Positions 1-55,100 of a stretch of 64,000 nt of DNA are shown one piece after another. The stretch's first letter is position 1, and each line of letters begins with the position of its first letter. Below the pieces are notes generated by a model, which saw nothing but the letters and a program-made list of their open reading frames with translations, did not search any database and was not told the origin of the DNA. Made by a program: the position numbers and the translations under genes. Location: NCBI GenBank assembly GCA_964570585.1, contig CAZMYR010000001.1, positions 17,441 through 81,440 of the forward strand, read 5' to 3'. The stretch is from an uncultured Planctomycetia bacterium. GTDB lineage: Bacteria > Omnitrophota > Gorgyraeia > JABMRG01 > JAFGKX01.

Positions 1-3000
1 TAGTTTGTGGCTATGTTGAATTTAATCACTCCTGCTTTGGCTAATACAGCAAGTTCTTCCATATCGCCTTCGATGGTTTCCGGCTGGACAATAGCTACAT
101 TAAATCTCTCGGCTTCTTTTTGCAACTCTTCTGTAAGCCAGGGACTTATCTTGTCCACCTGTGGTATAGGAGCCAATGTCTTCATATCATAATCTATGCC
201 ATGGCCTGAGCCATTATTTGTGGCAATAAGGTCAAAAGATAGGTTCTTTAATTTAAGATACTCTCCCATTACCCTTATAACAGCAGGATGGGTCATCTTG
301 GGCTCAAGCTTACCGTCACGTCTTGGGTTTGGCACTTTCTTATCAACCTGGCCCACCTCTATCACTTTTCCAAAATGGCCAGTTAATTCAGGAGTATGTT
401 TATCCACTATCCTATCTATATATTCAAGCTGATGCGCTGTCTCTTCTGCGTTGCTGGTAGGAAGAAGTAGTAGCTTTTGTTTCTCGCTTATACTCTTTGA
501 GACTTCTGGGCTTAGGTCACCTGCTATAGTAGCCCTGGCAACTTCTCTCATTATTTTGTCATAAGCAGCAATAACTTCATCTTCCGAAATACTTTCCACA
601 GGGCTCTTTTCGGAGACACCTGGCCCACGAACATCTTTATACATACGAGCTTTCTTGCGTAAAACGCCAAAGGCTGCATTCATATTTCTAACAACGCTGT
701 CAATCTTCCCAGGCGCTCTATTACGTTTTTTCATATTCGAGATAACTGTTCCTCTTATATGGTCAAGTCTTGCCATATTGTCTTTATCATATGGATTTGC
801 CTTAAGAAAATCAGCGCCCCATTCAAGCGGCAGCATAGAGTTCCTCTCCAGGCTAACAACTAAATCCTCAGCAGGCGTGCCATTTTTCTCATAATAGTCT
901 AAGACGGCCTCACCAGCTACTCCATCATAAATAGTTGAAGCATCTATGCCTATTGAGGTAAACCCTGCTTCAATTAAGGATTCAATATCACTCTTTATTA
1001 TCGCGCGCTCTGCGCTGAGATTATCATTTAACCTCCTCTGGACGGCTTCCAAGATTTTCACATCAATAGTATCAATTCTTATCTTATCATTATATGTACC
1101 CTCACCATTTTCCTTCTCATATTCCTCTTTCAATATCGCCTTTGCGTCAAATAAATAATCTTCATACTGAAGACGGCCACCATGTAAAACCAACGGGTTT
1201 TTAAATCCAATTCGCTCTGCTACTTCTCTTACATAGGCAACCACTCTTTTTTCATGTAAAGCATAACTAAGCTGGGAACGACCTACTGCAAAAATAACAG
1301 CAGCATTTTGGGCCATCGCAGCCTTGAGATGACCCTCAATCTGATTATAGCTGACGATATCGGCTGCTATTAATGCCTTCCTTGCCTTTTTTACAGCCTC
1401 GAATGCATCATGCCCGGGGGTAAATAAGCCCTCTGAGGGCCCAATTATAGTAGCTGTGCCGGTTGAGCCGACAGTTTCTATATACTGGTCATCACGGTGC
1501 TGGATAAGTTCGGTGATGGCCTGCTGGACCTTCCCTCCAGCTTCTTGGATAAGCATCTGGCGTGCTTTATTAGCAGCCGCTTCATCCCCGCTAATTGTCT
1601 TACGATCCCACTTTCTTATCTCAGCAATCCTTTCTTCAGGTAGTTTGCCTGCCGAGGAGGATTTTGCTTCAGCTATTGGGAGACCAGTAAGCTCCAGTGG
1701 CAGTGGCTGTATGCCACTTGCATCCTTAGTAATCAAAAATCCGCTATGTCGGTCATTGAGGATGGCGTTGGGGTCAAAGGTTATGAATATCTCATTGGTA
1801 AGGAAAGGGACTTCGTCCCCTGCCACCAGGTGCGAAGCTTTTTCTACAGGAAGGCGATGGATAATCACAGAATCGCCATCTTCAATAAAGTCAGGTTTTG
1901 CTTGACCGGTCTGAATAAATTTGGCTTGAATGCCTGCTCCGTTAACATCAGTAACTTCAAATAGATAACGAGCCTTAAGCAGAAGCTTCTGTCCTATCTC
2001 TATATAAGGAAAGTCTTCTTCTTTGCGCAGGCGGGCTACATCCATAACCGCTAATTTGTCTTTTACTCGACGGGTTACATAACGAGCAGCGAGTAACTCA
2101 AGGCCTAACCTTCCCTTATCATCATAATCATAATTCAGGGCAGTATTATACTTTGCTGTCTTGGCCTTTAGGCTTCTTCCGTATATTTCGCGAATAGCCC
2201 TGGCAAGCTCGTCAGGAAGCCTATATCCAAGGAAGGTATCCACCATTTCTCCCAAGTCCTGCTCTTCAGGAATTAGCAAAGGATTATCAGAGCCAAGCAT
2301 CTTTTCAGTCCAGTGGACAATCCTGTCAAACCCCTCTTTTCTTTCGCCTTTAAAGCTGTAGAAGTAGCCAAGATTATCTCTATTTTTCACCCTTAAACCT
2401 TTTATTATTTTACCCTCAGCCAGGGCCTGTAAGGTCTCTTCAATTAATTGCTCGGCTAATCTATCCAGTTGTTTCTGAATTCTTTTAGGCAGTAACTGAT
2501 ATGCTAAACGAGGCAAGACTTCATAGACTATCCATAGGTCACGACTCAAGATTATAGCTGCTTCGCCTTTCTCCTTAGCTTCCTCGGTTAAAAGGTCGGT
2601 TGCATCAACCTGCTCAAAGAAGCCATACATCCAGGTTGCGATTGCATTACGAACCTCTATGCTATCTCCATCAACCCTGGTAATAATCTCATTCTGGGTA
2701 TTCGATTTTCTGCTTAAGAAAGAAACAAAATATTGTCCTTCATCGCATTTTACATAATATTTTGCACCATCTATCAAATCTAATGCGATTTCGCTTACAT
2801 TATGTAAGGTCATGCCGGTCAGCTTAATATCTACAGGCTGAGCAGGTTTATAGATGTAATAAAGCGAACCATATTTTCTTTTCCCTTCTTGATATTGGCG
2901 CCTGGTGCCGGCTTCTTCAAACCCTAATTTTCCAATATACTTCTTAAATCTCTCTAAGACCCTATTGACTACCTTTTGCTTTTCATAACGGCCAAAGTTA

Positions 3001-3344
3001 GCATGCGTTCCTATCCTAACCTCAGGGCTGGCAAAAGACTTGGGTAACTCATTGTATGCATCAAGGAATGCCCCGAATGTCCTATCTCCCATAACCATGG
3101 GGACCAGCATCTTATTGGTTATCTCCACTGCGCTCATTTCTGCTCCGCTTAAAGGTTCCATTCCGTGACCGCTAACCTCTGCCCCTCCACCAATGCGGGC
3201 ATTGTTACGGAGGTTTACCAGAAGATTGGACTTGCGGCCTCCAAAAATCAGAGTCTCCTCATTCTCTGCCATTATACTGCCTTCTGTCTGTTTCATTTCA
3301 TCCTTCACATAACCAAAACCTACCGGGCCCTCTAAAACATCCAT
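1..3344 (-). CDS. Partial large multidomain protein, >=1114 aa; the C-terminal part continues past the window start. Ends in a class-II (Zn) aldolase-like module.
   Basis: Hand translation of the minus strand, codons topping at positions congruent to 2 mod 3. Verified codon by codon for 3-1673 and 3120-3360, with spot checks at 2400-2460 and 2880-2940; no stop from the ATG at 3342-3344 to position 3. Starts MDVLEGPVGFGYVKDEMKQTEGS. A possible SD (AGGGGAA) lies 13 nt upstream. Class-II fructose/tagatose-bisphosphate aldolase family signatures: SLIEAGFTSIGIDAS (941-985), IATNNGSGHGIDY (~200-240), GVIKFNIATN (12-41). Linker motif AEAKSSSAGKLP at 1638-1673. Absent from the supplied ORF track because it runs off the edge. 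Confidence 0.55.
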   Translation of the reverse strand, partial: MDVLEGPVGFGYVKDEMKQTEGSIMAENEETLIFGGRKSNLLVNLRNNARIGGGAEVSGHGMEPLSGAEMSAVEITNKMLVPMVMGDRTFGAFLDAYNELPKSFASPEVRIGTHANFGRYEKQKVVNRVLERFKKYIGKLGFEEAGTRRQYQEGKRKYGSLYYIYKPAQPVDIKLTGMTLHNVSEIALDLIDGAKYYVKCDEGQYFVSFLSRKSNTQNEIITRVDGDSIEVRNAIATWMYGFFEQVDATDLLTEEAKEKGEAAIILSRDLWIVYEVLPRLAYQLLPKRIQKQLDRLAEQLIEETLQALAEGKIIKGLRVKNRDNLGYFYSFKGERKEGFDRIVHWTEKMLGSDNPLLIPEEQDLGEMVDTFLGYRLPDELARAIREIYGRSLKAKTAKYNTALNYDYDDKGRLGLELLAARYVTRRVKDKLAVMDVARLRKEEDFPYIEIGQKLLLKARYLFEVTDVNGAGIQAKFIQTGQAKPDFIEDGDSVIIHRLPVEKASHLVAGDEVPFLTNEIFITFDPNAILNDRHSGFLITKDASGIQPLPLELTGLPIAEAKSSSAGKLPEERIAEIRKWDRKTISGDEAAANKARQMLIQEAGGKVQQAITELIQHRDDQYIETVGSTGTATIIGPSEGLFTPGHDAFEAVKKARKALIAADIVSYNQIEGHLKAAMAQNAAVIFAVGRSQLSYALHEKRVVAYVREVAERIGFKNPLVLHGGRLQYEDYLFDAKAILKEEYEKENGEGTYNDKIRIDTIDVKILEAVQRRLNDNLSAERAIIKSDIESLIEAGFTSIGIDASTIYDGVAGEAVLDYYEKNGTPAEDLVVSLERNSMLPLEWGADFLKANPYDKDNMARLDHIRGTVISNMKKRNRAPGKIDSVVRNMNAAFGVLRKKARMYKDVRGPGVSEKSPVESISEDEVIAAYDKIMREVARATIAGDLSPEVSKSISEKQKLLLLPTSNAEETAHQLEYIDRIVDKHTPELTGHFGKVIEVGQVDKKVPNPRRDGKLEPKMTHPAVIRVMGEYLKLKNLSFDLIATNNGSGHGIDYDMKTLAPIPQVDKISPWLTEELQKEAERFNVAIVQPETIEGDMEELAVLAKAGVIKFNIATN

Positions 3345-3392
3345 ATGCAGACGGATTCCCTGCTTTAAATATTCTTGCTTCATCTTCTCCAC

Positions 3393-6300
3393 TAACAGCT
3401 TAAACCCAGCGTAGAATTTCACTTCAACATAAAATATTGTCCTCTGAGTATCTTTTTCGCCTAAACGCCTGGCTTTCTCTACATCCTGCCTGGCTATAGT
3501 CCTGGCGTACAAGGCCATCAGTTCATCGCCTTGAACCATCTTGGCTAATTGGGGCAGCCAGGTAATTAACCTGTCCTTGTCTTCATCGCCGATTATGGCT
3601 ATTTCTACATCTTTCTCTTCAAAGGTGGCCATCGCCTGTCGGACAAACCACGGTATATTAGGATAAGGTTCGCCATCCGGGAACATATAGTCAGGGTCAT
3701 CGTGGACTACCAAAACCTTTTGCCCTAAAGCTCTAAAGATAATCTGATCCATTCCCCCTGAACCATGCTGATAACCTAATCCAAGGGTGGGTAAGCTATA
3801 TTTCTCAAACGGTCGCTGCCAGCAGAGTAAAGGCCGTTCTGAAAACTTCTCATCAAACTCTTTCTGTTCAGCTCTAGAAAAGCCTAAACTCTTTCCTAAA
3901 TCTTTACGGATTGCCTCCCATTTATCATCCCAATCTAATTCCCGGGTAGCCATTATAAGCTCGCGTATTCCACCCTTCTGGTGGATAGCCCTTTTCCATA
4001 ACCATCCCCATATATCTCTTCCTAAACGAATATAGGCTATTGAATATAAATAGTGGGTATAGGCAACCTCTACTGCAGAGAGCACTTTTATTTCTCTCTC
4101 TTTCAGCTGTTCTTCTGGACAGGGCCTGGTTCTGCCAGCAATAATACCTTCTTTTAAACCCTGCATCTCCTCATCATTAATACTCAATACCTGGGCTAAG
4201 GTATGTTCCCTACCTTTTTTATCCAGTTTAATATCGAACCAGCTGAGCATCTGTTTCCAGCCGCTAAACTCCCAGGGGTTATGGCTGGCTGTGCCGTGGC
4301 CACCACCAAATAAAAGATGCTCTGCCTCTTTATAGGCTTCGAGTAAATCTCCTCTTCCTTCTCCTACACATATCCCATCATTCCAGAGCAGGTTGACAAT
4401 AAGATAATACATTGGGGTTGAGATAATACCTTTCTTTTCAAAATCTTCCGCCAATACATTAAATCTTTCCACATCTTCAGGGCGCAGACGTCCGGCATCA
4501 AGGTCTTCCTTTATCCATTTCATAGCACGGTCAAGGCCTTTCTTATTAGATTTTACTAAAAATACGTTTACTCCTGAATAAAGCAGGCCTAAGGCATAGA
4601 CATCTCTATGTTCCTGTATAGGTAGGCGGCATCCACCACTGACTAAACCCCAAACCTTTTCTCGAAGCTGCTGATGCAGTTTGGGATTTTTTTCTATTTG
4701 GCGTTTTAATTCTTCGTCTTTTAAACCCATGCCTTCTAACATAGTGGTACCTAATTCTATGGCTGAGGAGAAGATAAGCTTCTTAGACATCAAGGCCGGA
4801 TATCGCTCTGTAATCCCAGGAAGTTTTAAGTCTGTGGTTCTAAAAGCGGAGCGTAAATCATAGGTTCTATAGGAGAACCACTGGCCATGTTCCATAATAT
4901 CGAATCTTCTAATAATATCGCCCTCGCGAACCTCTATATGTTCCTGGATAGTAACTCCTTTTGCCTTAATCTCTCGGGTATCATCAAAAAGAATATTATC
5001 TACACATTGGAGTTTTCCCTCAGTCCTTTTTTCCTTATAGGTTATCTCATGGGGGTTATCAATGATTTCTACTCCTGCAAATGGCCTCATATGACCATTT
5101 TTCTCAGGAACTTCATTTAGGATATCACTTATCTCATTAAGGAGTTTAGCTGAATCTTTAACCGTTAAACCAAAGACTTGAGAAAAGCTTTCTACTCCTT
5201 CTTTCCTGCTTTTAGAAGACACTCTGTTAGCTGCTGTATATTGAGCATCTCTGGTCATTATCTGGTGATAGGCAACTATCTTGGTAAGCGTCTTGTATTG
5301 TTCTAAGTCAAACTCAGATTTATGTCTGCGGAGGGTTTCAGGATTATGAAGGGCTTGGGTAAGTATCGATAATTGATCGGTCTTCAAGTTTAATCCAGGG
5401 TGAAGCATAGCATAAAGCGAGGTCAACATCGTAAGTAATTCTTCTGGAGCTGCTTCTCCTTTTTCGAGTTCTGCTCTTCCTATCTCATAGCCGCCATTCT
5501 TCAGAACAGCATTATATGCAAAAATTGTCCGCCAGATATCGCCGGCTTCTAAATAAGCCTTAGCCACCGCCCGGTATAGATGGCGCCATTCCTCTGCCTC
5601 TACTTTTTGGGGTAGTTTACGTAATTCAGCGGCGTCGGCCTCTATATCTCCCCCGGTAACCTCTGCTAAAATCCCAAGTATCCGGCTATCATCCTTTGTC
5701 TCTTTGAATATATCCACTGCTAATGGTAGAAGCCGCAATATAAAGTGCAATCTTTCCAAGCGCTTAATCCTTCTGGATAAATCTTTTTCAGTCTCGGCAA
5801 CATCTACTCCGTGAGTTACATAACTGCCTGCTGAAGCAGATTTGGTGGCAATAGCACCAATAAGGCTTTTAACTTCTTCAACGGGCTTGAAGAACTTAAG
5901 AACCTCTGCTTCGCCTTTAGCGCTAAGTACATATCTGCCAACAGTTGATGGAACATAAAGCGATTGGCCCCTCTTAAGAGGGATATCTTTCCCGCCTGAG
6001 CTAATTACAACCTCGCCTTTTATAACAAGAATATCGTGAGAAGTACCTTCTACTGGCGCTACACTTAATTCAGCCTCAGCGCCTTTTCCTTTTCCATTAA
6101 GCGTAAATCTGTGCACATTAAAATATTCCTGGGGCCAGACATTGGGGTATGTGCCTTGGATAAGGACTTCTTCTTTTGCTATCAAATCCTTGCCATACCT
6201 ATCTCGCCATTTTCCACGCTCAATTTGAGGCTCTAAAACAAAATTCTTCTCCTCTGTTGTTGTATCCTTTAAACCTTTCCTGACGAACATCTCTATTGTC

Positions 6301-8702
6301 TCAAACTCTGCCTGTAAGAAATCCTCTTCTGATGTAGTCGGACGTCTGGCTAAATTCTTGCGCATTATTAAACCTTTATCTTTTTTGAAAACAATAGGGG
6401 TAAAAAAGTCTGCAAAACTGAAGGTAATATTAGAGGTTTGCTGGGGTTCAACAAGTATAAGATGTTCATTGCCGCCTGTATCGTTTACAGGTATTACTAT
6501 CCAGGCCTCATTTTTGGCCTGCGGTCCTTTCAGGGGATGGGTCTGGTGGGAAAGGCCAAATATACTATGGGGATAACCGACGGGTGAGAGGATAACCTTC
6601 CCGGGCTCAAGTTCAATCTCATTAAATAATTCTACAATCCTGGCTCTGACACCTTGGATTTTGCTCATAAGCTGGCTGATTCTACGCCGATTTTCACTCT
6701 TTACAAATTCTTTTATATCCGGGATAAAATCGCCCCACCATCTACTCCCTGCTTGATAGTCGCACCAGTTTGTATAAACTTCTTTAAATCTTCTAAAAGT
6801 CTCTTCGTCAGTTATATCCAGGAGGTTCTTTAGCTCATGCTCCAGCTCTCTCTCTTCCTTCAGCCACTCAATAAAAACTTCTATTCCGACCTCATTGAGC
6901 TTTTCGTTGAACCCCATATGTACTCTATCTACAAAGTTTGTGCATTCAAACTTCTCAAAATAACCCTTATCTAAAGACTCACCAAGCATTTCGGGATTAT
7001 ATCCGAGAAGTTCTTTTAATGTTATAGGAGCCACATCTCCTAACGCTGTATCAGGAATAGTTGATAAGCCATCGTTATGAGTTGAATTAAACCAGAGCTC
7101 TGCTATGGGGTTATTTTTATCTATCGGCCTGCCTAAAACTATCTGGTTGGCTATTCCGCCCCAGGCATAATTTTTTTCCGCAGGAGTAGTTATTAGGGGA
7201 CTGTATTTTGCCTGTTCTATCAAATCCTTAATCTGTTTTATTCTGGTTTTTGCCTGGTTATTAGTTATAAGTTCGGGTAGCGAATCATCTGAAACATGAA
7301 AGTGAATCTCCCCGATGTTTTCTACTACTGTTCTGATAAGGTCAGCTATCTTCTTCTCATTTAACTCTTGATAAAATGTAAGCAGGTCTTTCTTGCCTGT
7401 AAACTGCTCCAGCATCTCTGTAGGGTTACTAATCCAGATAGGTTTAGGTGCGTCTTCTATGGTCCTGAGCATATAGTGTTTACCACCGGTGGATATAGTA
7501 GTATACGGTGGAAATTCTGCGTTCTTAACAATAGTTGCAACTGCCCCTGCCAACATCGGATCATAAGCAGGGTTAATCTTTTTCATATCTTTTGGGTCAA
7601 GCTTAATCGATATATCATTAAATCTCAATCCCCCTAAATTTACCATAAAGTCGGCATATCCCGGAAGGGCAAATGTCCAGGAACCTGCACTGACCCTCTG
7701 GGCCAAGACCTCTATTATGTTACCCGCTTCATCATATAAGATATTAAACTGGATACCTTCCCCTTCTGTTACATATTTTATGTCCAGAGAAATACCTTGG
7801 TAGTGTCCTACTCCGGTGCTGGTTGCCTGGATTGAGCCTGGCATCATATCGTGCAGAAAGGAGGTTTCATGAATGGTGGATAATTTCTTTTCCCTGGTAA
7901 GTTTCTTAAGGACATCGGGCACCCCTATAAGGCAATGGGCCATAAGATAGATAAGCTGCTTATTTCTCGCTGTTTGGAATTTCTTTGAATCATAGCGGGT
8001 AAGGGTAGCAAAGGCTGGGTTTGAAACGCTGCCTACGCCAAGCTTATCAATGCCTTCTGTGCCTCTATGATAAAATCCGAGTCCGCCTTCTTCATCCACT
8101 ACCAAAAACGGCAAGGCACTGACATCCAGATAGCTTAATCCTTTAGGGCTGGTAGCCATTCTGTCCATATCTGCAGTAACTCCAAAGGCTTCTCCTTCTG
8201 GCACATCTCGCTTAATCCATGATATTATATTCAGGGCCTGTCCGGCCATAAGCTGGAGAGCCTTTGATATCTTTGAATTCTGCAAGGAAAGACTCAGCTT
8301 TATTACTGTTGTATAAAATTCTTTTACATAGGGCTCGATGGTTCTATTATCAATAAACTTTTCTTTTAACTCATTGCTTATGGCTTCAAGGGCCGAAGGC
8401 AACTGGACAGATTTATATGCATTAAATAAAACCTTCGCTGCCTCTTTTGCTTTATACCCACCAATAACCAGCTCTACCATGCTTTCTACTTCAAGCTTAC
8501 CTGCGGTGGAAAGATAAGACTTGCCTGTTGGTACCTCTGATAAACTACTTCTAATTTTTGCACCCACGGAAGAGGGTGTATTTCGTAGAGAAGTTGCTCT
8601 TAGGGCATCAGTATCAGCAAATGCAGTTGGCTGAATTGTGCTTACAGCGAATATTATCGCTACGATTAAACTTACCGCCTTCTTTAACACCCCTTTACCC
8701 AT
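3393..8702 (-). CDS. Secreted large multidomain protein (1769 aa) with an N-terminal signal peptide and two mannose-6-phosphate-isomerase-like cupin segments.
   Basis: Start ATG at 8700-8702, preceded by GAGGAG with a 7-nt spacer. An alternative in-frame ATG lies at 8727-8729. The frame was verified open codon by codon from 8702 down to the TAG at 3393-3395. N-terminus MGKGVLKKAVSLIVAIIFAVSTIQPTAFA-DTD has positive n-region, hydrophobic core and AXA cleavage site, typical of a signal peptide. A PMI class-I-like motif GLSHQTHPLKGPQAKNEAWIVIP lies near 6480-6560. A cupin barrel ending GQSLYVPST lies at 5941-6122. This ORF is NOT in the supplied ORF track. Confidence 0.6.
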
Positions 8703-8893
8703 TTTCAAATCTCCTCTTTTTTTTGTCATAGTCTTTCATAAATCTTTGCTTTGTTATGCTTAAGTTATAAAAGTCTTTAATTACCCGAATACAGCGCAAC
8801 CCTTTTGCCTCGGTTTGTCCCCCTCGAAAATTTTTTATGGAGACAGTAAAATCGAGGCCAAAGGGTTGTTTAAACGCTATAACTCTATAACCC

Positions 8894-11800
8894 TTATGCT
8901 GCTATCAGGGCAGCCCAGGCCTGGCGCTGGAGTCTCTCTATCTCTTCCTGGCTTAGTTTCTCAACACCTGGTAGAGTGGTTATTATAAGCTCAAAGACAC
9001 TCCAGGTACCTTCTCTTAGGGCTTGCTCAACTATAGCTTCTATAGTATTCTGGGTGTATTGCTGATACATCTTCTTTATAGCAGGGAACAGCTGGTTGAA
9101 GTTATCTTCATTGAGAGACAAAAGACCCCTGGCTACGGCAATAAGCTCTGCCATTGGAAGAAGTATATCATCTTTCTTAACCCCTATCTTAAAGAGTTTG
9201 ACATCAGCAAGCTGTTGTTTGTCTGAGATAAGGATGGTTTTCTTTCTGTTTAGGGTCTGTCTGTTTACATCAGCTAATAATACTATCTGGGTCTTTTTAG
9301 TTACTTGGCCTTTATCCTTAAAGGATAGGGCATATTCTAAGGCGTCACGGAGTCGGTGGTCTTTAAGCATAGAGATAACCGCCATCCTCTGTTTTATATC
9401 AGGAATGGCGTTGGCATCTACGATGATGGTGCCTTCTGATTCTATCCTGGCAATAGGGGCACAAACTCTGGCAAATTCTATTACACTGCGCTGGGTTGCT
9501 ATCTTAAGCTGGATAAGCTCTTCTTCAGCTGAGGTAAGAGTAGTTTCTACTTTTAACCTTGTTGCCTTTGCACTTAATTGAGTCAATTTCTGTAAAGACT
9601 CTGTAAGCAAGCTATCATTGAGTAGTTCTACCTCTCCAGGAACCTGGGTGGTCTCTTTAACCAGGGCGTCAAGAAGTATATTCTCGGCATTAAGTAATCC
9701 TCTATTAAGCTCTGCCAGAGCCCGGTTGCCGGCTGAGGAGGATTTATTAGGCTTGTCTGATGATTTCTCTCTGCCAACCATCATATCGTCCATAGCAAAG
9801 GCTTGCACTTTTTTAGCATAAGCCTTCTCTGCTTTTGTGTATTTGGCACCTGCTCTTCTAACTAAGATTTTCTCTGCATCAGGGAGTCGCTTCAATAATT
9901 CTTTTCTGGGCGCAGGACCGGCTACGAGATTCTGTTTCTGTAATTCAACTATCTGTTTTCCGGTAAGAATAGCTATGCCAGCCTCTGCAGATTTATCTCC
10001 GATTTTTTGCACCAGTGCAGCTACCGGCATAAACCCCTCTAACATATTTTGAAGATCCCTTACCTGATATAAAAGAATATAGGCACCCTCAGTTTCTTTT
10101 AGCGAAAGAAGGGTTATATTAAAATCGTCGCATTGTAAAAGTAGCAGCCCTTTCTGTCCAAGTTTAGCATCTTTTATAAACTGCTGGTCATATCCAAGTT
10201 TTGAAACCTGTTTTTTAAATCCAATTAACACATTGTATAAAAGCAGCAGCCGGGATGCCCTTACATCGTTCATAGGAATATCTAGAGCCAGCCTTACAAG
10301 AATCTCTGGTTCAATAACCTTAACTTCCTCACCGGCCAGTATTACACCCGATGAGGAGGATTTGGATGTGGAAATAGGTTTTGGCAGCAGTTTTGAAATA
10401 GCTGCTGTGTCAAGCTCAGAAACCAGCGTAAGGGGAAGGTCCTCGCTGGGTGGCAGGTATTTGGCGGCATAATCGCTCTTCCAATCCTCTGTGAGCTGAG
10501 CTATCACCTCTTGCTTAACTATAGCATAGATACTGCCTTTTTTATCAATGCGTACATCAACAAGAGGGTTATCGCCTTTATATTCCCACCATTTGTGTCC
10601 TATCTTGAATCCTGGCTTGTCAGTCTCCATATAGAGAGAACCCGGCCCAAAGATAACCGCACTTGTGTCTATGCCGGACTTTAAGAATATGAGTTTGCCT
10701 TGCTTAATTTTGACAGATGACCAGCGAGTATTGGCTCCCATATTTCTGAAGGTATAATCACCGGCGGAAGGTATCTCTGGTATATAGTTGATTGCATGCA
10801 ATGTCTTAAGAAGACTTGAGAAAATTTCTGTAACCGACTTCTGTTCCTTAGCTCCGGCTGAGGAGGACTTGGTAGATTCCTGTATCTGTGCCATTAGTCT
10901 AATATTGCGCTCTAATACATTTTGAGCAGCAATATTATGAGCTAAAGCCGGTTTATCCTTAATTCTTTCCATCTGTTCTTTTGTAAGATGTGCTATATAA
11001 GCCTCAAGGCTACGCCTGCCCTTTATTCTCATCAATATTTGTATATCTGCAAAACCAGACAGTTCTGCCTTCAAAAAGCTAATGTATGCGTTATCAATTC
11101 CGGGCATACGAAAACATCCAGTAATCTCAAAAGGTGTGTGTTCAAACATACTTTGAATCATTCGCTCATTCAAAGATATGTCTCCTACGCTTCTGGCTTC
11201 ACGGCTTAATTTTTCAAAATTGTCAAATGGGAAATTTTCTTTTATATGAGCAAAAACAAGTCCATTATTCGCCAGATTCTCGCGTGTAATATCTTCGACT
11301 TTAATACCAACATCACCTATCCGGACTATCTTGCCGGCTGACGAGGATTTGCCTGCAACAGGTATTATTGCTACCTCAGGAACTAACTCAAAGACAGCCC
11401 AGAGGTCATATCTGTTGGGTTTTCCTAATTCAATAAAGCTGCCACCACCTTCCCAGCGATGTTGACCATATGCTACTACACCACCTGCCGTGGTAACAGG
11501 TTTACCTGTTTCAGGGTCAAATCCCCAGAATGGACCATGGGCATGGCCTCTTGGCAGGGGAAGATATGCTGGCTTTCCACTCTCATTATAATAGACCATA
11601 CCGCCCTTACCGGTTCCATTGCGCATACAGAAGTGAATCTCACCAAATGTGGTGTCTTTGGTTAGTTCGCTATGGTCGTGGTCTGCACAGTTTACACCCT
11701 GGCCTGCGGTCCAGAACTGGATATAACAGACCTTTTTCTCTTCACCGTTTATTATCTCTATACCCTTGAGGTTATAGAAAGCTAAATTATCAAAATGCTC

Positions 11801-18772: not shown

Positions 18773-18898
18773 CTCATCCTCCTCATTTGTTTAAAAAGTC
18801 TTAAAAAATCCAGGCACAAAAAATCCCTCTCATCTAAAGTAAACTCATTTTTGGAATCACTCCTGACTTAACCAGGTGGATTCTAAATTTTAGGTTTG

Positions 18899-18928
18899 GT
18901 TATACCCTTTCTGCTGTACTTTATGCAA
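18899..18928 (-). promoter_or_regulatory. Candidate sigma70-like promoter for the 3292-aa gene (TTGCAT-18-TATAAC on the minus strand)
   Basis: Read from the reverse complement of 18893-18930; sits directly after the upstream terminator. Confidence 0.3.
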
Positions 18929-18950
18929 GAAAATCGCCTTCGGCGATAAC
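18929..18950 (-). terminator. Rho-independent terminator of the 1900-aa gene (minus-strand reading: ATCGCCGAAGGCGAT followed by TTTTCTTGC)
   Basis: Perfect 6-bp stem with a TTCG-type loop at 18933-18947, and a T-run on the transcribed strand. A second hairpin GCCCCGAAGGGG lies at 18961-18972. Confidence 0.5.
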
Positions 18951-19161
18951 TCTGACCTGTGCCCCGAAGGGGTATGCGCGATTTTCAGTGGTACCTGATT
19001 TTGAAATTCCATACCATAAATTATAAATATACTTTTTTAAAACTTATTTAAATTATACCAAAACTTCTTCATATTGTCAATTATTTTCTTACTAAAATCT
19101 CAGATTTTTCGGTAGATAAAGAGAAAATTTTATTCAGGCCTACCAAAAGACGAAATATATA

Positions 19162-24864: not shown

Positions 24865-25007
24865 AGTTAACCTTTATGCAGTAGTGAATGAATTTATTAT
24901 CGCGCACCCTTCGACTTTTGTATATTCTGCATCCATGGCAGCTTTAAATCTCCTAAACTTCCTTCTTTCTTTCATCTTAATTACCCTTTCTGCTAGGTTT
25001 GGGTTTG

Positions 25008-25122
25008 CCCACCAGCATCAAAAGATGCTGGTGGGCTGGGGGCTAAAGCCATGTTATATGGCTTTACTTTATTCCGTCATTGCGAGCCCTTGACGTCTTC
25101 GATGTCAAGGGCGAAGCAATCT
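25008..25122. promoter_or_regulatory. Two strong hairpins downstream of the giant gene's stop: GCCCACCAGCATC-AAAA-GATGCTGGTGGGC (25008-25037) and an imperfect ~20-bp stem around CCCTTGACGTC...GATGTCAAGGG (25078-25122)
   Basis: A perfect 13-bp inverted repeat is seen directly. No clear T-run follows, so a terminator or RNA-processing role is inferred only. Confidence 0.4.
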
Positions 25123-25174
25123 CAAACGTAGAGATTACTTCGGTTGACTCCGCCAGCTTCCATTAGACTTGATA

Positions 25175-46100: not shown

Positions 46101-49100
46101 TCTTCAAGGCCTTCAAAGCCGAGCCTTCTCAACTCCTCAGTAGTAAGTTCTTCCCCAAGCTCCACATCCGGTCTTTCTATGCTCCAGTAGGCAGTATCCG
46201 TATCAACTTCAGTATCTGCTGCTGCCAGCAGCCAGACCATAAGCTGCTCCGGAGCAAACTGATAGGTTCCAAGCTCATCACCTAAGGCCAGGCGCAGCCA
46301 GGTTACCAACATATGAGGCAAGTCTGTAAAGTTCTGAGGACCAGCTAATTTTGCCTTGGTCCAGTTTCCTTCAATTATATTAATGCTAGTCCTTTTTTCT
46401 CCATCTTCACCTTTTATCTTCTTACTTTCATAAAGCAAATTCTGGGGATTATTAACCCAGACATGGACACAAAAGGCGTCCGGCAATAAACCTCCACCCT
46501 TTTCTTCAACTTCTTTAATGGCCGGTGCAGTAGTCAACTCATATAGGACAGCTAAGGCTAAAGCAGGATAGGCCTCTGGGGAAATATCAGTGCCGGCCAA
46601 ACCAGCACCGACTACATCCAGAACCTGCTGGAGGTTGAAATTATTCGGAGTTTCAACGCCAATGAAGTTTCCGTCTCCTAATCTGACCAGGCCTGCTCCC
46701 AGAGAAGTGGGTGTGCCTATATGAAACTTTAGCTTAAAGCGCTTATCCATATGCTCAAACATCTCTGCGGCGTACCATTTGTGGGTTCTCTTATATTCAT
46801 CATAGTCAACTATGAATCTTAAGAACTGCTCCAGGCCCCCTTCTGCATCGCTCTCCGCCTTCTCTTTCTGTATCTTATAGTATTCTTTGGCCTTCATCCG
46901 CCTCTGGATATCATCGGCGATGAGCTCTAATTGCTTCTTAAGGTCGTTCTGGGCCTCTTCAGAAAGCTCTTCGTTCTTCTCAACTAACTTTTTAGCCCGC
47001 TTCTTAAACTCCTCCCAGGCCTGTTTTGCCTCATCGTTCATCGGCATGGTAGGTACGTCCTTATGCCTGCGTAAGATATCCTCTTGCCTTGCTGCTACTA
47101 CTGGCTGGGTTACAGGTTGAACTGCTGCAGGCGGGATTGTCTTTATCACGGCTTTTATGGCAGCTCTTAATATCTGCAAGCTGACTAAGACATTCGGGTC
47201 TGTTATGCCCAATCTTCTGGCCTTTTCAGTAAGTTGTGCGCGGGCAGCAGCTAATTTCCGCTGTTGAGTGGTTAACTCATCCTGCCTCTTATTAAGCTCT
47301 TCTAACTGTTCAAGAACAGCCTCAAGCTGGGTGATATATTCCAGTTCTTTGTTGATAGCTGGGTCTATCTCCTGCTCAAGCTGGGTTAAGGAGTTGGTGG
47401 TATCTGCTAATGCTTTCTCGAGCTTGGTAAGCTGTTCTTTAAAGGCCTGGAACTGGGGTAGGGCCTGGGCCTGTTGGCTTAGTTTTTCAGTAATGGCCTG
47501 AATCTTTTTTTGTAAGGCGGCCTGCTGGTCTCTTAAGGGCAGGATCTTTCTGGTAGTATCTGAGGAGGAGTCGATGATATCTTTTATCCGGTATCTTAAG
47601 CTATGCTCATTTAAACGAGCGGCTAAGTCGATTAGGCCTAATTCCCTAATGCTTTCGGCAAGTTCACTGCGGGCTTCTTCTATAGACCGGGCCTGGGCTG
47701 ATAATTCATTCTCTTTCTGCAGCAGCTGCCCCAATTCTCCAAGCAGCGCTTCCAGTTGGGGTATATTCTCTGGGGCTATTGCTGGCTGTGCTTGAGGCTG
47801 GGCTGGTTGAGCTGGTCTTTTCTCTTCGGCTGGTTTTTCTACTTTGGCTGCTCTTTCCGCTTGGGCTGCTCTTTCTGGTGGCGGAGGCGGTACTACTGTC
47901 CCAGCCTCAGGTTCTTCATATTCTCGCTGTAAAATCTGCACAAGCTGCTCCAGTAATTGTAACCGCTGCTCCAGCCGTTTAATCTCTCCTTCAAGATGAA
48001 CAATGTGGGCAGGGATACCGACTTCTGGCGCAAGAAGCTTCTCTTGTTCCTGGAGGAGTCTCTCTTTAGTAAGGTCTTCTGCTGGGAAGTCAGGGTCTAT
48101 CTCTTGGACTTTTTTTAAGAGGTTCTGGTCTATCCGTGGCTGCAATGATAAAAGCCCTGCGATATTTGCAAGCTGAGTTTTTATCTGCTCAGCTTCTTTT
48201 ATTTGCTCATCTGTAGCTTTCTTCTGTATCTGCTCAAGGATGTACTTCTGTTGCGCAAGCATAAGTTCTGCTAACTTAGCCTGTGCGGTTGTTTTCTCAA
48301 GAGGGGTCTCTGCCTGCCCTAACTCCTGCTGGGCTTTTTCTATGCCTGGTTTAAACCTTTCTTCTGCATCAGGAGCGAGTCTGGCATATGCGGCAAGGCG
48401 GGTTGAATGTTCTTTTTTGAGGCGTAACCGTTGTAATGCGTTATTTAATTGCTCAATCTCTCTTTCAATATCAGCAATATCCTCAACCCGAACAATGTGA
48501 GGTCCAATGCCTATCTCTGATATAAGAAGCTTCTGTCTAATTTCGCGGAGGGCTACTGTTAAACGAGCAGATATATTCTTTTCTTCTGCTTCTTTATTAT
48601 ACGATTCTATTAAGTCGTTTAACTCCTGCTCTACAGCACTAATTTGTAGGGTAAGGGTCTCTATCTCTTTATCAAGTTCTTTCTGTGCTTCTTCTTTTTC
48701 TTCAGAAGCCCTTTGCTCTTTTAATCCTTTCAGCGTTCGTTTTTGCTGATTAAGAAAAGTATCTAATTGTTCTATCTGTTGCCTTAATGACAGCAGTGTT
48801 TCGATATCTTCTAATCGCTGCTTTATTATATCGAGCTCTTCTTTTTGCTCATCAGTTGCGCTGTTTCTAATCTGCTCAAGGATGTATTCCTGCTGTGCCC
48901 GAATAAGCTCAGTGAGCCTGATTTGCGCAGTTACCTTATCAGGGTCTGTTACAGCCTCACTTAATTCTTTATGGGCATCTTCTATCTGCGATTTAAATTT
49001 TTCTTCAGCATCGGGGGCAAACTTTCTATATAAGGCAAGGCGCTTTCTCTGTTGCTGGCCCTCTTTTATGCGTTGCCTGAGTTGCTTAAATTGTCCTTCC

Positions 49101-52100
49101 CAATCAATAACGATTTCAGCTGGCGTCTGTTCGCTTACCTGTGGCGCGTGTATGATATTATCTATTGCCCTTGAAGCCAAAAGTGTGCAATAATCGAGCA
49201 ACTGTTTTGGCGCTTCTGCCACATTAATCTCTGCTTTTGTATAAGCAACACCTTCATGCTGGCTCTGCGCTACAACCGCAGCAGGCGCTGAAGCAAGCAT
49301 AGAAACACCCATAGCAGGCATAAGAATTGCGTTTAGCGCTTTTGTTACTTTCTCGGGGTCTCTGGCTAAGTGGCTTAATCTGCTAAACCCTACTTTGGCT
49401 ATGTTAAGTTCGACCAGGGCATCTGTAATTGCTTTTCTGAAAGCAGGTTTCTGTTCATCAGGTAGTATTTCGGAAGGGATCTTGAAAATCATGAGGTCGA
49501 TTTCCGGCTGGGAGAAGAATCCTCCGTCTTTCGGCGGAGAATGGGCCTGCATCTGTTCTAAAAATTCCTGCATAAGCCTGTGTTTGCCGGCAGCCTCTGC
49601 CAAAACATTAAATGACAGCTGCAATGGGTTTTGCGTTCCCGTTACATTATCTTTAAAATTTTTGACAGCATTGCGTATAGATTCGGAAACATCTCCAAGA
49701 CCTGAAGCTGATAAATTGCGTATAGACCCGTTAAATGTCCATGCCTGGCTTTTGGCAAGATGGGAATAGTCTAATCTCTTTTCCATTCTTTTTGTTATAA
49801 TCGCCTCTGTGCGAAATCCCAACCAGGTTGCTATCCCAAGAAGCGACAAAGCGGTTATGCCTTTTATTATAAATAAAACTGTGCCTGAAATTGCCAACGG
49901 TACTGCCCAGCCGCCAACAAATAAAAGCACTATTCCCAAAATTGCTCCGGCGGCTATCATGACCGCCCTGGCATTAAGTGCAGCCGCCCTGCCCACATAA
50001 GCTAACCTGCTTATTCTTTTAGCCTCTGTTTCACCTTTTATAATAGCCTCGTTTTCTGCAATTCTCTGAGAAAAACGCCACTGGGACATCATGAGTAAAA
50101 CACCTTGAATGGCAAAAAGGCCCATTATAGGATAGCCGATAATTGCTAAGATTCCACCCCCGGATATGCTGCCTGCTGCAATAGCCGCTGTGACGGAATT
50201 AATTACAAAGGCGCCGAAAAGTGCTGTTAAACCAAGCCCCAGGAAGCCTATTAAGATACCAGCACCAAATCCTGCTATAATCATCCATCGGTTTTTAGCA
50301 ATAGAATCATTACTGTATGCGAAAATCCTATATGCAAGAATGCCTCCCAATGCAACTGCTGAAAGTCCTGGCACAAAGAGCATAAGAGCTGATGCCTCTA
50401 CTGCTGCAACCAGTAAAGCAGAAACCCCGAGGGTAGTTAAAAACCCTCCGATAAACGCTCTAAAAAACCTCTTTGGCGTGCTCATAGGTAATCTGGGCGC
50501 CTGTGAAAGGTCTTTACGCGCAGTGCCCAGCAATGCTAAGGAAGATATAAGCCCTATAATGCCCAATACAGCTGATGCAAGAAAGAAAATTGCACCAACC
50601 GTAGGGGCGGTAAATGGCGCGGTTCCTACAAGCGAAAGCAGCGCCATAGCACCGACAAAAGGAGAAAATGTGGCCATTATTGTAAGTGTCTTTCTCCAGG
50701 TGGATAAACCAGCAGCCTCAAGTGCATCTTTCCATGTTGTCTGCTCGCCAAGGGCAATAGCATTTGCCATCTTTGCAGCAGCTGTATCTGTTTGTGAGAG
50801 CCTTTTAATTTGAGAATTTAGTGCCCATGTTATCATAATGGCCACAACCCCAATAACAACAAGCCCTACAGGCCCGGCAGCAAGTAAAACCGACAGGAGA
50901 TTGCCTATTACCGGCAGGCCTAAAGCTGTACCAACCCCTCCGACTGTAAGCGCTTTAAACACCCATCCTAAGAAAAACGCAAGGCCAATGTTAGCGGCAA
51001 TGGCAAAGGCGGCAGGGAGTATTTTTAAGGATGAACGCTTGAATCTGTCACCTAAGGAAATCTTTCTTTTTTTAGCCAGCTCTTTGGCTGCTTCTATTTG
51101 TTGCTGTTCTGGGGGGATTACGCCGGCAAGATGATGGGCAAGGGCTGTGACCTCTTTCCCCATCTTTTCCTCTCTTTGCCTTTCCATGGTTTTGTACGAT
51201 AGTGCTGTCAGGCGTTTTATTTCTCCATATATCTGCTGCGGATTGAGAAAGGTCCTTTCATATCCAGGGCGTGAAGACGCCTGCTGAAGTCTGTGTTTGC
51301 TTCTTCCTGCTTCATCAGTAAACTTCATCCACCCTTCGTGAATTATCTCCAGTGCCTTAGATTTAAGGTGATCTGTAATAATATCATATATTAGTTCGCA
51401 CGCCTTCGGCGGAGTAGCATCTTTCTCTAATTGCAGCTCTGCCTTCAGAAGAGGGAGGATATCTTTCCCAAATTCCGTCTCCATAAAACGTAAGATATCT
51501 TCCCTTGAAAGCGTGGCTTTTTGGCTCCCACCTATAAAATTTGTAGCTGCCTTAACTATCCTCTGTGCAATGGCGTCCAGTATTTCCTTTTCAATGAGCG
51601 GTGCTATGCCATGGCGAACTATTTGAAGCCTGAATTTAATCTGCGGCATATTGAATTCTTTCCCTGTAAATTTGCCGAATTCGATTTCCTGGCGCCTCAT
51701 ATTTTGCTCATGGTCATTAATGGCCTCTCTCATCTGCTCAATAACTTTTAAGTTTTCTTTGGCTTCCTTAGATTTTTCAGAGTCAAGATTAAACTTAAGG
51801 TCATATACCTGCGCACCTTTTGTCTTTCTCTCAAAATATCCGAGTTCTTCCTGGATAATATTGCGGTATTTTATGAAAATGTCATCCTTCAGCGACCAGA
51901 CACCTATCCAAAAACCGATTTTACCGTTTCTTGCAACCCTGCCTCGGAACTGTATATCCTCTACGGTCAGAGGACAGTAGGTAGATATAGCAACCATTTT
52001 ATCGCCTTTAAAATCTACGCCTCTTCCACTTAAGTTTGTAGAAACAATTATGACATTCTTATATTTAGATAATTCCTCAACCATATCCTTCAGCTGATAA

Positions 52101-55100
52101 TAATTGCCAGATGTAAATTCCACAATTACCGTATTTATAGAACCATCCCGTGCCATTTCCTCTAAAATGGCTTTTATCTCCTCCGGGTTCTTATCCATTA
52201 AATCTTTTATGGAATCGCTTTTTACTATATTATCTAATACTTTCCTAATTATATCCTCAATTATAGTCTGCCTATTTGCGCTCTTATCTTCTAACCTTGC
52301 TAATATGTCACTTAACTCCGATGTCATGCTATCTACATCGGCTACCTCTATATGCCCTTGATTTGATAATTCACCTAAAATTTCACTCACTTTTTTTACT
52401 GCCTCTTCTACTGTCTGTGACCTTTCAACCTCTTCTGCTAAACGCCTCAAATATCCCTCCATATACTGATCTGTAACTTTACCATTTTGCCTTACGCGCC
52501 TGTAATTCCCCTGGCCAATTCGTGAGCGATGAAGAAGAGAATCCACATGATTACTTACGGTCCTGTCTGATTCGCAATTTAGCAGTATGGAACCTACTTC
52601 TTCAGGAACACCTTCAGTAATCATCTCAGCAGGCAACTTGTGGTTTATATGTAACCGCTCCACTAAACCAGTGGTCTTCTGTCCGGAAGTGCCTTTATCA
52701 GGACACATAAAACCATAATCTGTACGTTGAGGTTTTGGCTCTTCGCCCTTTCCTGCTTCTGCTTCGCCTTTTTCTACTCTTGCCATTCGAATAAGCTCCT
52801 TGGAAGATACAAAAGGCAACTTATAATCATCTGCTGTATCTTTCCCAACAGTAGCTGAAGCTAAAGATATTCCTGAAACAAGTCCCATTTCAGGGTTGAG
52901 AACCTCCGGCGTTGTCATCGAGGCAGAAGACATCCTTTCTTTTTCAATCTTTAAGTTAGCATTATTTAACCTGTTTTCCTTTATTCTTACAGCCGTATCA
53001 AGCCCAAAGCTCCATTGTCTTCCTTCCAGCTTTCGGCCGCTTGCGTCCTTATCAATAATATTCAGCTTCCCTCCGGATACATCATATTGCTCTTTCCTGT
53101 TTTGATAAAGATATGCACCGAGCGCCAATTCCATATATTCCTGCCACAAATGGGTATCGCCTATGCCAAAAAGTTTTCCCTTATTTGCTTTATATTCATC
53201 TATTGTATCCAGTATTTGTCCAAGCCACACCTCTCCTGTTCTTTTAAAGGTTACTAAGGAATCGCCTCTTTTACAAAGTTCTCTATTAACATAAAATTTT
53301 CCGTTTCTTTCGAATATGAGCCTGTGTTTCCAGATAAGTTCATCGGCAATTTGTTGCATCCTGAGCCTTTGTTCAGCAAGGTCTGCCAACCCCTGTAGTA
53401 TGCCTGTCCCTGATATAACGCAAGGGGTAAACACATGTTTCTTTAAGGGGTTATCACCTTCATCAAAATAGATAAAGTATGTCTGCCCTTCCCGCACCAA
53501 TGCCAGGTCTTCTTCCTTTCTGGACATAAAGACATCATCCTCGTACCTATGGATGAAGTTATATATATTAATATAAATTACATCAGCTTCTTCAAAAAGC
53601 TTTCTTTCCGTGGTATCCTGCCTGTTGCCTTGCGCATCCACAAAATAGGCCTTTCTGTCTCCTGTTCCTGCCTCTGAAATAACATATCCTGTCTTAGCGC
53701 CAAAATATGCATTAACCCTGCCCGCCTTTCTTCCGTCTCTTTCTATCAGGTTTTCTTCGGTATGAATAATAGCCACATCTCTCTTGCCAGGCCTTTTGCC
53801 TGTTTTCTCACGTTCCCATACATAAGGAAGGCTCTTTAGGAGTGATGTGCCATTAAACACGAATGTCTTTCCGGCGGATGTGGGCATCTCTACTGCGGCG
53901 CCGTTTCTCATAACTTTAGCAACCGCTGCCTGAATCTTCCATTTTTCACGATCCCATTCAATCTCGTGGGTTACCGCATCCTCAGTAAGGCCGCTGGCCA
54001 CTATTGCCTGCTCTATCAATTCTAACAACAGGTCTTTATCAAAATCTACACCTTGTGATTTTAATGACTTTAAAATAACACTAAACCTATCCTGAAATTC
54101 TTCTATCGTCATCCGCTCAAGTACAGGCCCCACTTTTGCAACCTTTTCGCCTTCTGGCACCGCTGGTTTCCTGTCGCTTTCTACCCTTGCTTTTTGCGAG
54201 GTCTCCTGCAGCTGTGCGCGCAGCTTCTTTATAGTATCTTGGGCTCTGGCAAGTTCTTCTTTCTGCCTTGCTTTTTCCCTTCGGGTTTTTTCTAATTCTT
54301 CTTGAACTTCCGCAAGTTTTCTTTCTGCTTCCTCAAGCCTCCCGGTAAGTTCATCAAGTCTCTCGCCGGGAAATAAGGCATCAAAAAGCGGCGTATTTAT
54401 TGATTTGGCAACATCAGGGTCTACTTTAGAAAGGTCTATATTGCTTTCACTGCCATAATATTTTTCTTTGTCGATGCGGTGAAGGCCTCTGAAGTTTCCT
54501 AAAGTAATAGGAACCCGGCCTGCCAGAACCCTGATTCTTCTGCTTAAGGTATCTGCGTTGTGCTTAAACATCCAGGGCCGGATAGGAAATTTTATGCCCT
54601 GTTTTCCGAGTTCTTTATTTAAGGCAACTATATTTTTAAGTTTCTCAATAAATAAAACGCGATTGCTTTTAAGGCTTTTGCGTATTTCCTCAGATTTAAC
54701 AAGCCGCTCTGTATCTTCAGCTGCAAATTCTTTATTTGCCCCGATGTCTTCTAATATTCCTTTCAGAGTCTTTCCGGCAGAGGAGGCTTTGACTTTGGCA
54801 CCAGGAGCCAGGGTCAGTCTCAGTTTCTTATCCTCCTTATCGATTCTGTCAAGCCCGGCCTCATCATTTGCATATAATCTTTTTAGCTTATCTAACTTAA
54901 CTGCATATATATCTTTACCCTCTTCCCATGCAGATGTAAGCTCTTCGAGTCTTCTCTTAAAAAGTTCTTCTTTCGCTTTTTCTATCTTACTTCTTACATC
55001 TTGATAGGCATCCGCCCCTTTAAGGCGTTCAAATTCTTTGGTAAGGTGGGCGGCAACCTGAAATTCAACGCTCGATTTCTCTGTCGGCTTAATCGGTCTC

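Follow-up and report, generated by a model that had tools for sequence, protein, structure and literature searches.

A recurrent K-[A/S/T]-[S/A]-S-[A/S]-G hexapeptide at module edges of giant Omnitrophota proteins: a candidate protease recognition site

Giant proteins of Omnitrophota reach 10-150 kaa (kaa, thousand amino acids; aa, amino acids), and whether they act as single chains or are cleaved has been left as an open question, the lack of known cleavage points having prevented their module-wise structure prediction (bioRxiv 10.1101/2023.11.21.568195). Here we describe a short peptide motif, K-[A/S/T]-[S/A]-S-[A/S]-G, that recurs in such proteins in a stretch of 64,000 nucleotides (the window) from an uncultured Planctomycetia bacterium placed by GTDB in Omnitrophota (assembly GCA_964570585.1, contig CAZMYR010000001.1, positions 17,441 to 81,440). 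The window contains four consecutive giant open reading frames (ORFs), all on the minus strand and in the order G4, G3, G2, G1:

3..8729, minus strand: giant ORF G1, N-terminus at 8729 and C-terminus beyond the window, more than 2,900 aa, two motif copies (residue numbering starts from base 8705)
8897..18772, minus strand: giant ORF G2, 3292 aa, six motif copies, four of the six within the final 820 residues
19165..24864, minus strand: giant ORF G3, 1900 aa, zero motif copies
25178..57106, minus strand: giant ORF G4, 10643 aa, three KASSAG copies

Profile matches along these giants are sparse and mostly enzyme-like, several of them being partial or under curated cut-offs. Searches against Pfam, NCBIfam and PDB identified in G4 a SecA DEAD-like ATPase, about 27 hydrophobic segments, HEAT repeats and a DUF218/YdcF-like domain, and gave for G1 partial or weak matches to a mannose-6-phosphate-isomerase (MPI)-type cupin, PGM/PMM and class II aldolase. 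Relatives of the G4 core, at 35-55% identity, come nearly all from Omnitrophota metagenome-assembled genomes, and exact look-ups of the window proteins in public assemblies returned no record. An all-against-all BLAST of the giants (E <= 0.01) found zero paralogous segments, and repeated domains were rejected as an explanation of the motif. The modules with which the motif can be compared are the following:

11384..12160, minus strand: AUDH-type cupin module of G2, aa 2205-2463, E = 4.7e-37, 55% identity to protein P0003
G2 aa 1901-2170, minus strand: GlmU-like nucleotidyltransferase (Pfam/NCBIfam)
5931..7202, minus strand: MPI-like module of G1, aa 502-925, weak, with the Pfam cupin below cut-offs and PDB entry 1QWR at E = 0.034
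26027..26914, minus strand: YdcF/DUF218-like module of G4, aa 10065-10360, with residues 10-248 of the 266 of PDB entry 3CA8 matching aa 10068-10327
25238..26008, minus strand: final G4 module, aa 10367-10623, with 43% identity to the module found after KASSAG in protein P0067 of metagenome contig L131

The strict form of the motif, K[AS]SS[AS]G, occurs ten times in the window giants (one copy in G1, six in G2 and three in G4), and a variant, KSASAG, once more in G1:

1647..1664, minus strand: KSSSAG, G1 aa 2348, codons AAA TCC TCC TCG GCA GGC
5826..5843, minus strand: variant KSASAG, G1 aa 955, after the MPI-like module
18584..18601, minus strand: KSSSSG, G2 aa 58, just past the hydrophobic N-terminus, with fully different codons (AAG AGT AGT TCA AGC GGT)
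13940..13957, minus strand: KASSAG, G2 aa 1606, with divergent codons (AAA GCC AGC TCG GCT GGA)
11333..11350, minus strand: KSSSAG, G2 aa 2475, after the AUDH cupin end
10853..10870, minus strand: KSSSAG, G2 aa 2635, also in an identical JGI fragment, P0002
10346..10363, minus strand: KSSSSG, G2 aa 2804, strict copy
9728..9745, minus strand: KSSSAG, G2 aa 3010, exact match to the 18-nt consensus AAATCCTCCTCAGCCGGC
54773..54790, minus strand: KASSAG, G4 aa 773, between the Tiki/ChaN-like N-terminal domain and the SecA-like ATPase, where orthologues have no counterpart segment
26915..26932, minus strand: KASSAG, G4 aa 10059, N-terminal edge of the YdcF-like module
26009..26026, minus strand: KASSAG, G4 aa 10361, kept at the homologous position in contig L131

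Composition predicts 0.004 strict copies, and no more than one appeared in any of 2000 shuffles, so that the copies can be put down to chance with essentially no credence. KSSSAG and KASSAG are the top two enriched hexamers in the giants, and Lys, Ser4 and Gly are invariant across motif copies. All matches in the giants to the loose pattern [KR][ASGT]{4}G are motif copies, with zero near-misses; the motif is thus sharply defined, which is not the behaviour of a generic flexible linker. No conservation was seen in the flanks, positions -12 to -1 being without consensus, and, taking into account the absent paralogy, each copy is a six-residue island in otherwise unique sequence. Relative to background, the 12 upstream residues are slightly lower in hydrophobicity (p ~0.04) and the 12 downstream residues slightly higher (p ~0.05). 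The four small neighbouring genes of the window (1.6 kaa) carry 0 copies.

An earlier note on this DNA, made from the sequence, had reported at least 12 copies of the motif in four giants. Recurrence itself is borne out, and the coordinates that it gave for located copies are correct, but its count includes false copies and only three of the giants carry the motif: G3, which it took to be a 1769-aa protein, has none, and the 'KSASGS' variant that it listed occurs nowhere. Another of its copies, SFGSSAGGLS, has no Lys and lies inside a segment of G2 (aa 162-579) for which BLAST gives an alignment with P0001, an Elusimicrobiota protein of UDPGP type; from inspection of the two sequences it is read as the counterpart of the 'ISAGGLSTRTGG' loop of that protein:

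18188..18205, minus strand: FGSSAG, G2 aa 190, not a motif copy, read as a UDPGP-type nucleotide-binding loop

Where a module beside a copy could be recognised in the window, the motif stands at its edge, in agreement with the earlier suggestion that it falls between modules. The clearest case is found at the end of G4, where the KASSAG copies at aa 10059 and 10361 bracket one complete YdcF-like enzyme of stand-alone size, residue 10 of E. coli YdcF (3CA8) aligning to aa 10068, that is, four residues past the Gly of the first of them. In G2, the copy at aa 2475 begins 12 residues past the final matched residue of the AUDH cupin (profile position 307 of 308, at aa 2463) and 5 residues past the end of the homology with P0003 (aa 2470), which then runs into other sequence. 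The KSASAG of G1 lies about 15 residues past the extrapolated end of the MPI-like module, an estimate that depends on a weak alignment (1QWR residue 306 of 319 at aa 925, E = 0.034).

Two metagenome contigs add 12 copies, ten in L131 and two in L017. L131, which carries P0067 and was reached by homologue search, is an ENA contig of 31.6 kb (GC 0.39) with no DNA similarity to the window, and its ten K[AST]SSAG copies, with varied codons and the same peptide, lie in about 6.5 kaa of large multi-enzyme ORFs, for which 0.002 would be expected. Both of its adenylate-kinase modules begin one residue past the motif Gly (KASSAG|IVLIGLPGSGKS), and the motif also marks the start of three paralogous modules, which are preceded by unrelated sequence. 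The alignment of residues 172-433 of L131 ORF2 with G4 aa 10361-10623 (43% identity) begins at the Lys of KASSAG in both proteins; between these two copies the six motif codons show three synonymous differences and zero replacements, and the upstream neighbours differ, being a PHP domain in L131 and the YdcF-like module in G4. The only 4- and 5-mers enriched in the window and in L131 alike are those of the motif. In the same contig, an in-frame TAG (8144-8146) splits a PHP domain between two ORFs of the same frame (2..8143 and 8147..9511), for which a sequencing error, a pseudogene or a read-through or recoded stop are all possible.

L017 (GC 0.40) comes from a JGI sample series that also holds the identical G2 fragment, and it may represent the window's own population. 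Its two KSSSAG copies are in a signal-anchored protein with a cupin-type glucose-6-phosphate-isomerase domain, adjoining a stand-alone homologue of the G4 N-terminal domain. The contig also encodes a tandem peptide repeat, TAAGI[KE] x5 (ETAAGIKTAAGIKTAAGIKTAAGIETA), at aa ~660-690 of the minus-strand ORF 1-2361, and a look-alike without Lys, 'IKPSSAGM', close to the contig end. A scan of metagenome DNA with AARTCCTCCTCAGCCGG gave at least 120 stretches, nearly all of them chance matches (high GC or out of frame), and among the matches listed only L017 is a true relative. Searches with whole G2 and with its C-terminal part retrieved only the distant UDPGP protein, the identical JGI fragment and one cupin homologue. 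Setting aside the window's own fragment and P0067, 64 homologous proteins contain 0 copies, and neither they nor six other Omnitrophota loci (1.7-8.3 kaa each, ~47 kaa), which also have 0 copies, show an analogous small-residue motif. An exhaustive search with the SecA-like region gave 63 relatives, which are likewise without the motif, but the motif positions of G4 fall outside the conserved core.

These data leave hardly any room for a composition artefact, or for reading the motif as part of a catalytic or nucleotide-binding loop (a Walker A or nucleophile elbow, for instance). It is true that the motif is built of common small residues, that one copy reads SSAGKT and so resembles the SecA-like Walker A 'TSAGKT' of G4, and that the look-alike FGSSAG is itself read as a catalytic loop. 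Against this, enrichment over composition exceeds 2,000-fold in the window and in L131, by which this view is already refuted as a general explanation; the flanking modules are of unrelated folds, and the motif is missing from the 64 homologues and from the six other Omnitrophota loci. A Walker A P-loop was also rejected on its own terms, taking into account that the pattern [AG]xxxxGK[ST] is absent from the giants, that only 1 of the 23 copies precedes K-[ST] (here K-T), and that the true P-loop of L131 (GSGKS) comes 6-11 residues after the motif.

The earlier note had argued, from codons that differ between copies, that conservation is at the level of the peptide and not of DNA. Some copies do keep the peptide with different codons, but 18-nt similarity and codon identity among copies exceed expectation. 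Seven window copies are within three mismatches of the 18-mer AAATCCTCCTCAGCCGGC, against 0.03 expected, and TCC accounts for 11 of the 17 Ser codons at motif positions 2-3, compared with 14% gene-wide (p = 2e-6) and 17% in other Ser-Ser pairs, whereas position 4 in the window and L017 uses TCA, TCT or TCG and never TCC. This position-dependent codon choice exceeds what peptide selection alone explains, and recent spread of copies or a nucleotide-level constraint could be the source of the excess codon identity within the organism. The 18-mer has a GC content of 61% within a 41% GC genome.

Such observations are those expected if the 18 nucleotides were a joint in DNA, a microhomology or recombination site for in-frame duplication, insertion and shuffling of modules, the peptide being its tolerated translation. 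Further points in the same direction are that duplication and homology breakpoints fall at the motif, that direct copies flank the YdcF-like module, and that the G4 copies are all of the GCC/GCT (Ala) subtype, KASSAG, versus mostly KSSS-type copies in G1 and G2. This explanation is nevertheless improbable: the 23 copies all share a reading frame; the peptide persists where the codons are entirely different (G2 aa 58 and 1606, and L131); at the homologous position, G4 and L131 show synonymous changes only; and DNA information content ends at 18 nt, the flanks showing neither a dyad nor an extension of the site, a scan of the window finding no copy of the 18-mer on the other strand or in non-coding DNA. 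By these same properties (18 nt only, one frame, one strand, peptide kept with different codons), an att-like recombination site or DNA repeat was discarded, elements whose conservation is independent of frame and usually covers at least 25 bp with dyad symmetry.

A role in RNA was also considered and rejected. The UCCUCC core is inconsistently paired, no recurring GGAGG partner occurs near the copies, no shared RNA fold was found around them, and inspection by eye revealed no start codon after the reverse-complement 'GGAGGA' at the copies, so that neither RNA structure nor an anti-Shine-Dalgarno function fits.

Both levels, then, carry signal, and the peptide level dominates. As judged from sequence comparison, it is on the motif peptide that selection acts, because the homologous motif of G4 and L131 differs only synonymously and because edges and peptide are kept across contigs; the claim that the motif works at the peptide level is in this way sustained. 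Ser codons within the motif are almost all TCN (AGY: window, 4 of 30; L131, 2 of 22; baselines, 38-39%), as would be seen if loss of Ser were never tolerated.

The same TCN bias is compatible with common descent, and in duplications the motif travels with the downstream module, as it would if it were the functionless remnant of a single ancestral linker copied along with modules. We give this possibility little weight, since all six residues are kept although the adjacent module retains only 43% identity and the sequences upstream have nothing in common; moreover, flanks of the window copies show no residual similarity, and no decayed near-miss copies exist. Of still slighter, frankly speculative standing is a combination of two roles in 'module cassettes' that would be copied, inserted and exchanged in frame between giant genes, in which the 18-mer would be both the module-exchange joint and a polyprotein cleavage site, integron-like in its assembly and virus-style in its processing.

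Taking these results together, our preferred reading, which we hold tentatively, is that K-[A/S/T]-[S/A]-S-[A/S]-G is a protease recognition site, a functional peptide signal placed before gene-sized modules of polyprotein-like giants in one Omnitrophota sub-lineage. The motif is enriched, stands at module edges and keeps its peptide across organisms; from this we infer that it is most likely read by a protease, and proposals on the cut position and the enzyme are made on the same basis. A dedicated, probably cytoplasmic, endopeptidase would recognise the hexapeptide and cut within it or just past it, either after the Gly or at Ser|[A/S]-Gly, this second option being modelled on the small-P3/small-P1 rule of Ser-Lys dyad peptidases. 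The downstream module would be freed with a near-native N-terminus (the adenylate kinase from its first beta-strand, the YdcF-like enzyme from about residue 1), and the upstream product would be left with a short floppy tail. The reader of the motif is probably cytoplasmic, because the copy at G4 aa 773 shares a stretch free of transmembrane helices with the SecA-type ATPase and because neighbouring modules use ATP or sugar phosphates. Such a location speaks against signal peptidase I and sortases, and also against processing as a lipoprotein and O-glycosylation in the periplasm.

Several of these systems had also been examined one by one. A lipid-attachment sequon, put forward in the earlier note, fails as no copy is followed by Cys and there is no lipobox; periplasmic O-glycosylation, also put forward there, is a poor fit to modules that depend on ATP or sugar phosphates. 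Signal peptidase I sites have small residues too, but no hydrophobic stretch precedes any copy, and the same neighbours speak against it. Sortase, exosortase and rhombosortase signals were dismissed since the copies are internal and followed by soluble modules.

The other two roles suggested in the earlier note, a processing site or a docking peptide, both fit a motif that acts as a peptide at module edges. The second of them belongs to the most serious competing explanation, which we consider rather unlikely: that the motif is an uncleaved functional linker, a site for docking or post-translational modification (Ser phosphorylation or AMPylation, Lys modification) that organises an intact giant. 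Enrichment, edge position and peptide conservation fit it equally, and the motif offers three hydroxyl residues plus an invariant Lys. No protease was found in the giants by Pfam or NCBIfam, and the gene of a Fic-domain protein lies 3 kb away from the operon, although it stands beside an IscB element and may be unrelated cargo. The literature, moreover, describes multi-enzyme giants as single polypeptides (bioRxiv 10.64898/2026.06.07.730766). What tells against a linker of this kind is that a docking or modification site would have no need to lie right against the first residue of the module after it, as the motif does at the adenylate-kinase and YdcF-like modules, and that no partner domain recurs together with the motif.

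Other facts weigh against the proposal of a protease site. The motif occupies a minority of domain junctions: G3 has no copy, G4 has none across the 9,286 residues between aa 773 and 10059, and the junction between the GlmU-like domain and the cupin of G2 is without it, so that the earlier idea of a site that cuts the giants into modules does not hold in general; some copies, besides, are 80-290 residues from the next recognisable domain. The codon identity between window copies, above codon-usage expectation (p = 0.002), is not predicted by a purely peptide-level signal. Cleavage at the motif is putative, and scans of the 18.7 kaa of giants with Pfam and NCBIfam gave no peptidase domain. An AlphaFold model of G2 aa 2400-3292, made with no alignment, places four motifs in coil, but its mean pLDDT (predicted local distance difference test) of 35 makes it unfit to judge exposure. 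Finally, the sole candidate enzyme, a Tiki/ChaN-like domain, is assigned from a medium-confidence model, is also present in relatives without the motif, and belongs to a superfamily that includes non-proteases.

This candidate is the N-terminal domain of G4:

55487..56944, minus strand: G4 N-terminal domain, aa ~55-540, Tiki/TraB/ChaN/erythromycin-esterase-like core, candidate hydrolase only

It carries the motifs IHIQDAH ... LLEG ... ITGGFHT, and its homologues are encoded by a stand-alone gene beside giants in L017 and L002 or are fused to giants in L004 and P0015. The domain has no Pfam match, and a profile search against PDB sequences gave no significant match; its putative placement in the Tiki/TraB/ChaN/erythromycin-esterase superfamily comes from a structure model of medium quality and is to be taken as a lead only. 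The superfamily also includes esterases and a haem binder, and sequence-specific endopeptidases are among its members, namely Tiki and RRSP, the effector in which the Tiki-like endopeptidase fold occurs in MARTX (PMC6254334).

The comparison with known processing systems is instructive. As in viral polyproteins and MARTX, a short motif here recurs where functional units meet, its flanks being unrelated. MARTX sites are Leu|X bonds in unstructured linkers, read by a cysteine protease domain (CPD) that is activated by host inositol hexakisphosphate, and they release toxins. The resemblance lies in the giant modular bacterial proteins with short linker sites between modules, which would be released from one precursor if the motif is cut; the differences are that the motif here is K[AST]SS[AS]G, that a CPD or other peptidase was not detected, and that the modules are metabolic enzymes of housekeeping type. 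Among viruses, the sites of birnavirus VP4 are (S/T)-X-A|(S/A)-G, in line with the 'Ala-X-Ala' rule of Ser-Lys dyad peptidases. Viral sites share with the motif a length of 4-7 residues, unconserved flanks, a location at protein borders and small would-be P3 and P1 residues followed by [A/S]-G. Unlike them, the motif belongs to a cellular organism in which domains of S24, S26, S50 and S16 type were not found, and its invariant Lys and Ser have no counterpart.

A third system is closer in taxonomy. C39 peptidase domains, common in other Omnitrophota giants (bioRxiv 10.1101/2023.11.21.568195; bioRxiv 10.64898/2026.06.07.730766), have been proposed to process them (bioRxiv 10.1101/2023.11.21.568195), and a small-small dipeptide ending in Gly, similar to the double-glycine site, would yield native-like module N-termini. 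A double-glycine site was rejected here: with a cut placed after the final Gly, Ala or Ser would occupy P2 in 23 of 23 copies, and an LSxxELxxIxGG-type leader is absent. Pfam scans found no C39 domain in the four giants. None of the closest systems, that is, MARTX, viral polyproteins and C39 double-glycine sites, is matched by the motif in all its defining features. As for the proteins themselves, they are similar to the published 'class 1' multi-enzyme Omnitrophota giants in their tiled sugar-metabolism and kinase Pfams, SecA DEAD-like domain and many transmembrane helices (bioRxiv 10.64898/2026.06.07.730766); a junction motif is not reported for that class, and the six other Omnitrophota loci examined have none.

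The earlier note knew of no described motif of this form for giant bacterial proteins, and a literature text search for the hexapeptides likewise gave nothing relevant. Searches by term in bioRxiv 10.64898/2026.06.07.730766 and in West-Roberts et al. (bioRxiv 10.1101/2023.11.21.568195) turned up no junction motif or cleavage point, and we rate both the setting and the sequence of this junction or processing motif as new. Before it there was no concrete candidate for a place at which such giants could be split into working enzymes, and it makes the question of cleavage testable, predicting exact termini to seek in proteomes and metaproteomes. It also gives rational boundaries for dividing giants for structure prediction and expression, and a sequence handle for finding the cognate enzyme through phylogenetic co-occurrence. 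If it were a true processing site, a free-living or predatory bacterium would express ordinary metabolic enzymes (adenylate kinase, YdcF-like and sugar-nucleotide enzymes) as polyproteins, a mainly viral strategy. Even uncleaved, a strictly conserved six-residue signal at the starts of unrelated modules would be unusual in bacterial protein architecture.

A second short peptide, EDILR(R), also recurs in the giants, with 6 copies (G2 aa 721 and 933, G3 aa 707, and G4 aa 1869, 3342 and 5112) vs 0.04 expected and with dissimilar flanks. It was not found in L131 or L017, and in the consensus of alignment A1 around G4 aa 1869 'EDIL' is common to the orthologues P0004 and P0005. A layout similar to that of the window is present in another organism, on a groundwater contig of ~91 kb (L008-L010), where a giant of ~13 kaa is followed by proteins of 1648, 1827 and >1400 aa; CofD-like domains recur in it and its AUDH cupin shares 55% identity with the one in G2, but it has zero copies of the junction motif.

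Just upstream of the operon of giant genes, a HEARO RNA (Rfam RF02033, 119.7 bits; window 58770-60312, plus strand) overlaps the start of a 491-aa RRXRR + HNH protein, a combination that we take to be the signature of an IscB/omega-RNA (OMEGA) element. Between it and the two-component genes lies the gene of the DUF4172 + Fic-domain protein, a possible AMPylase (60408-61532, plus strand). Next comes a 394-aa protein (61625-62806, minus strand) with an unusual pairing of a response-regulator receiver domain and a phosphopantetheine-attachment, acyl-carrier-protein-like domain, which adjoins a GAF histidine kinase (62829-63992).

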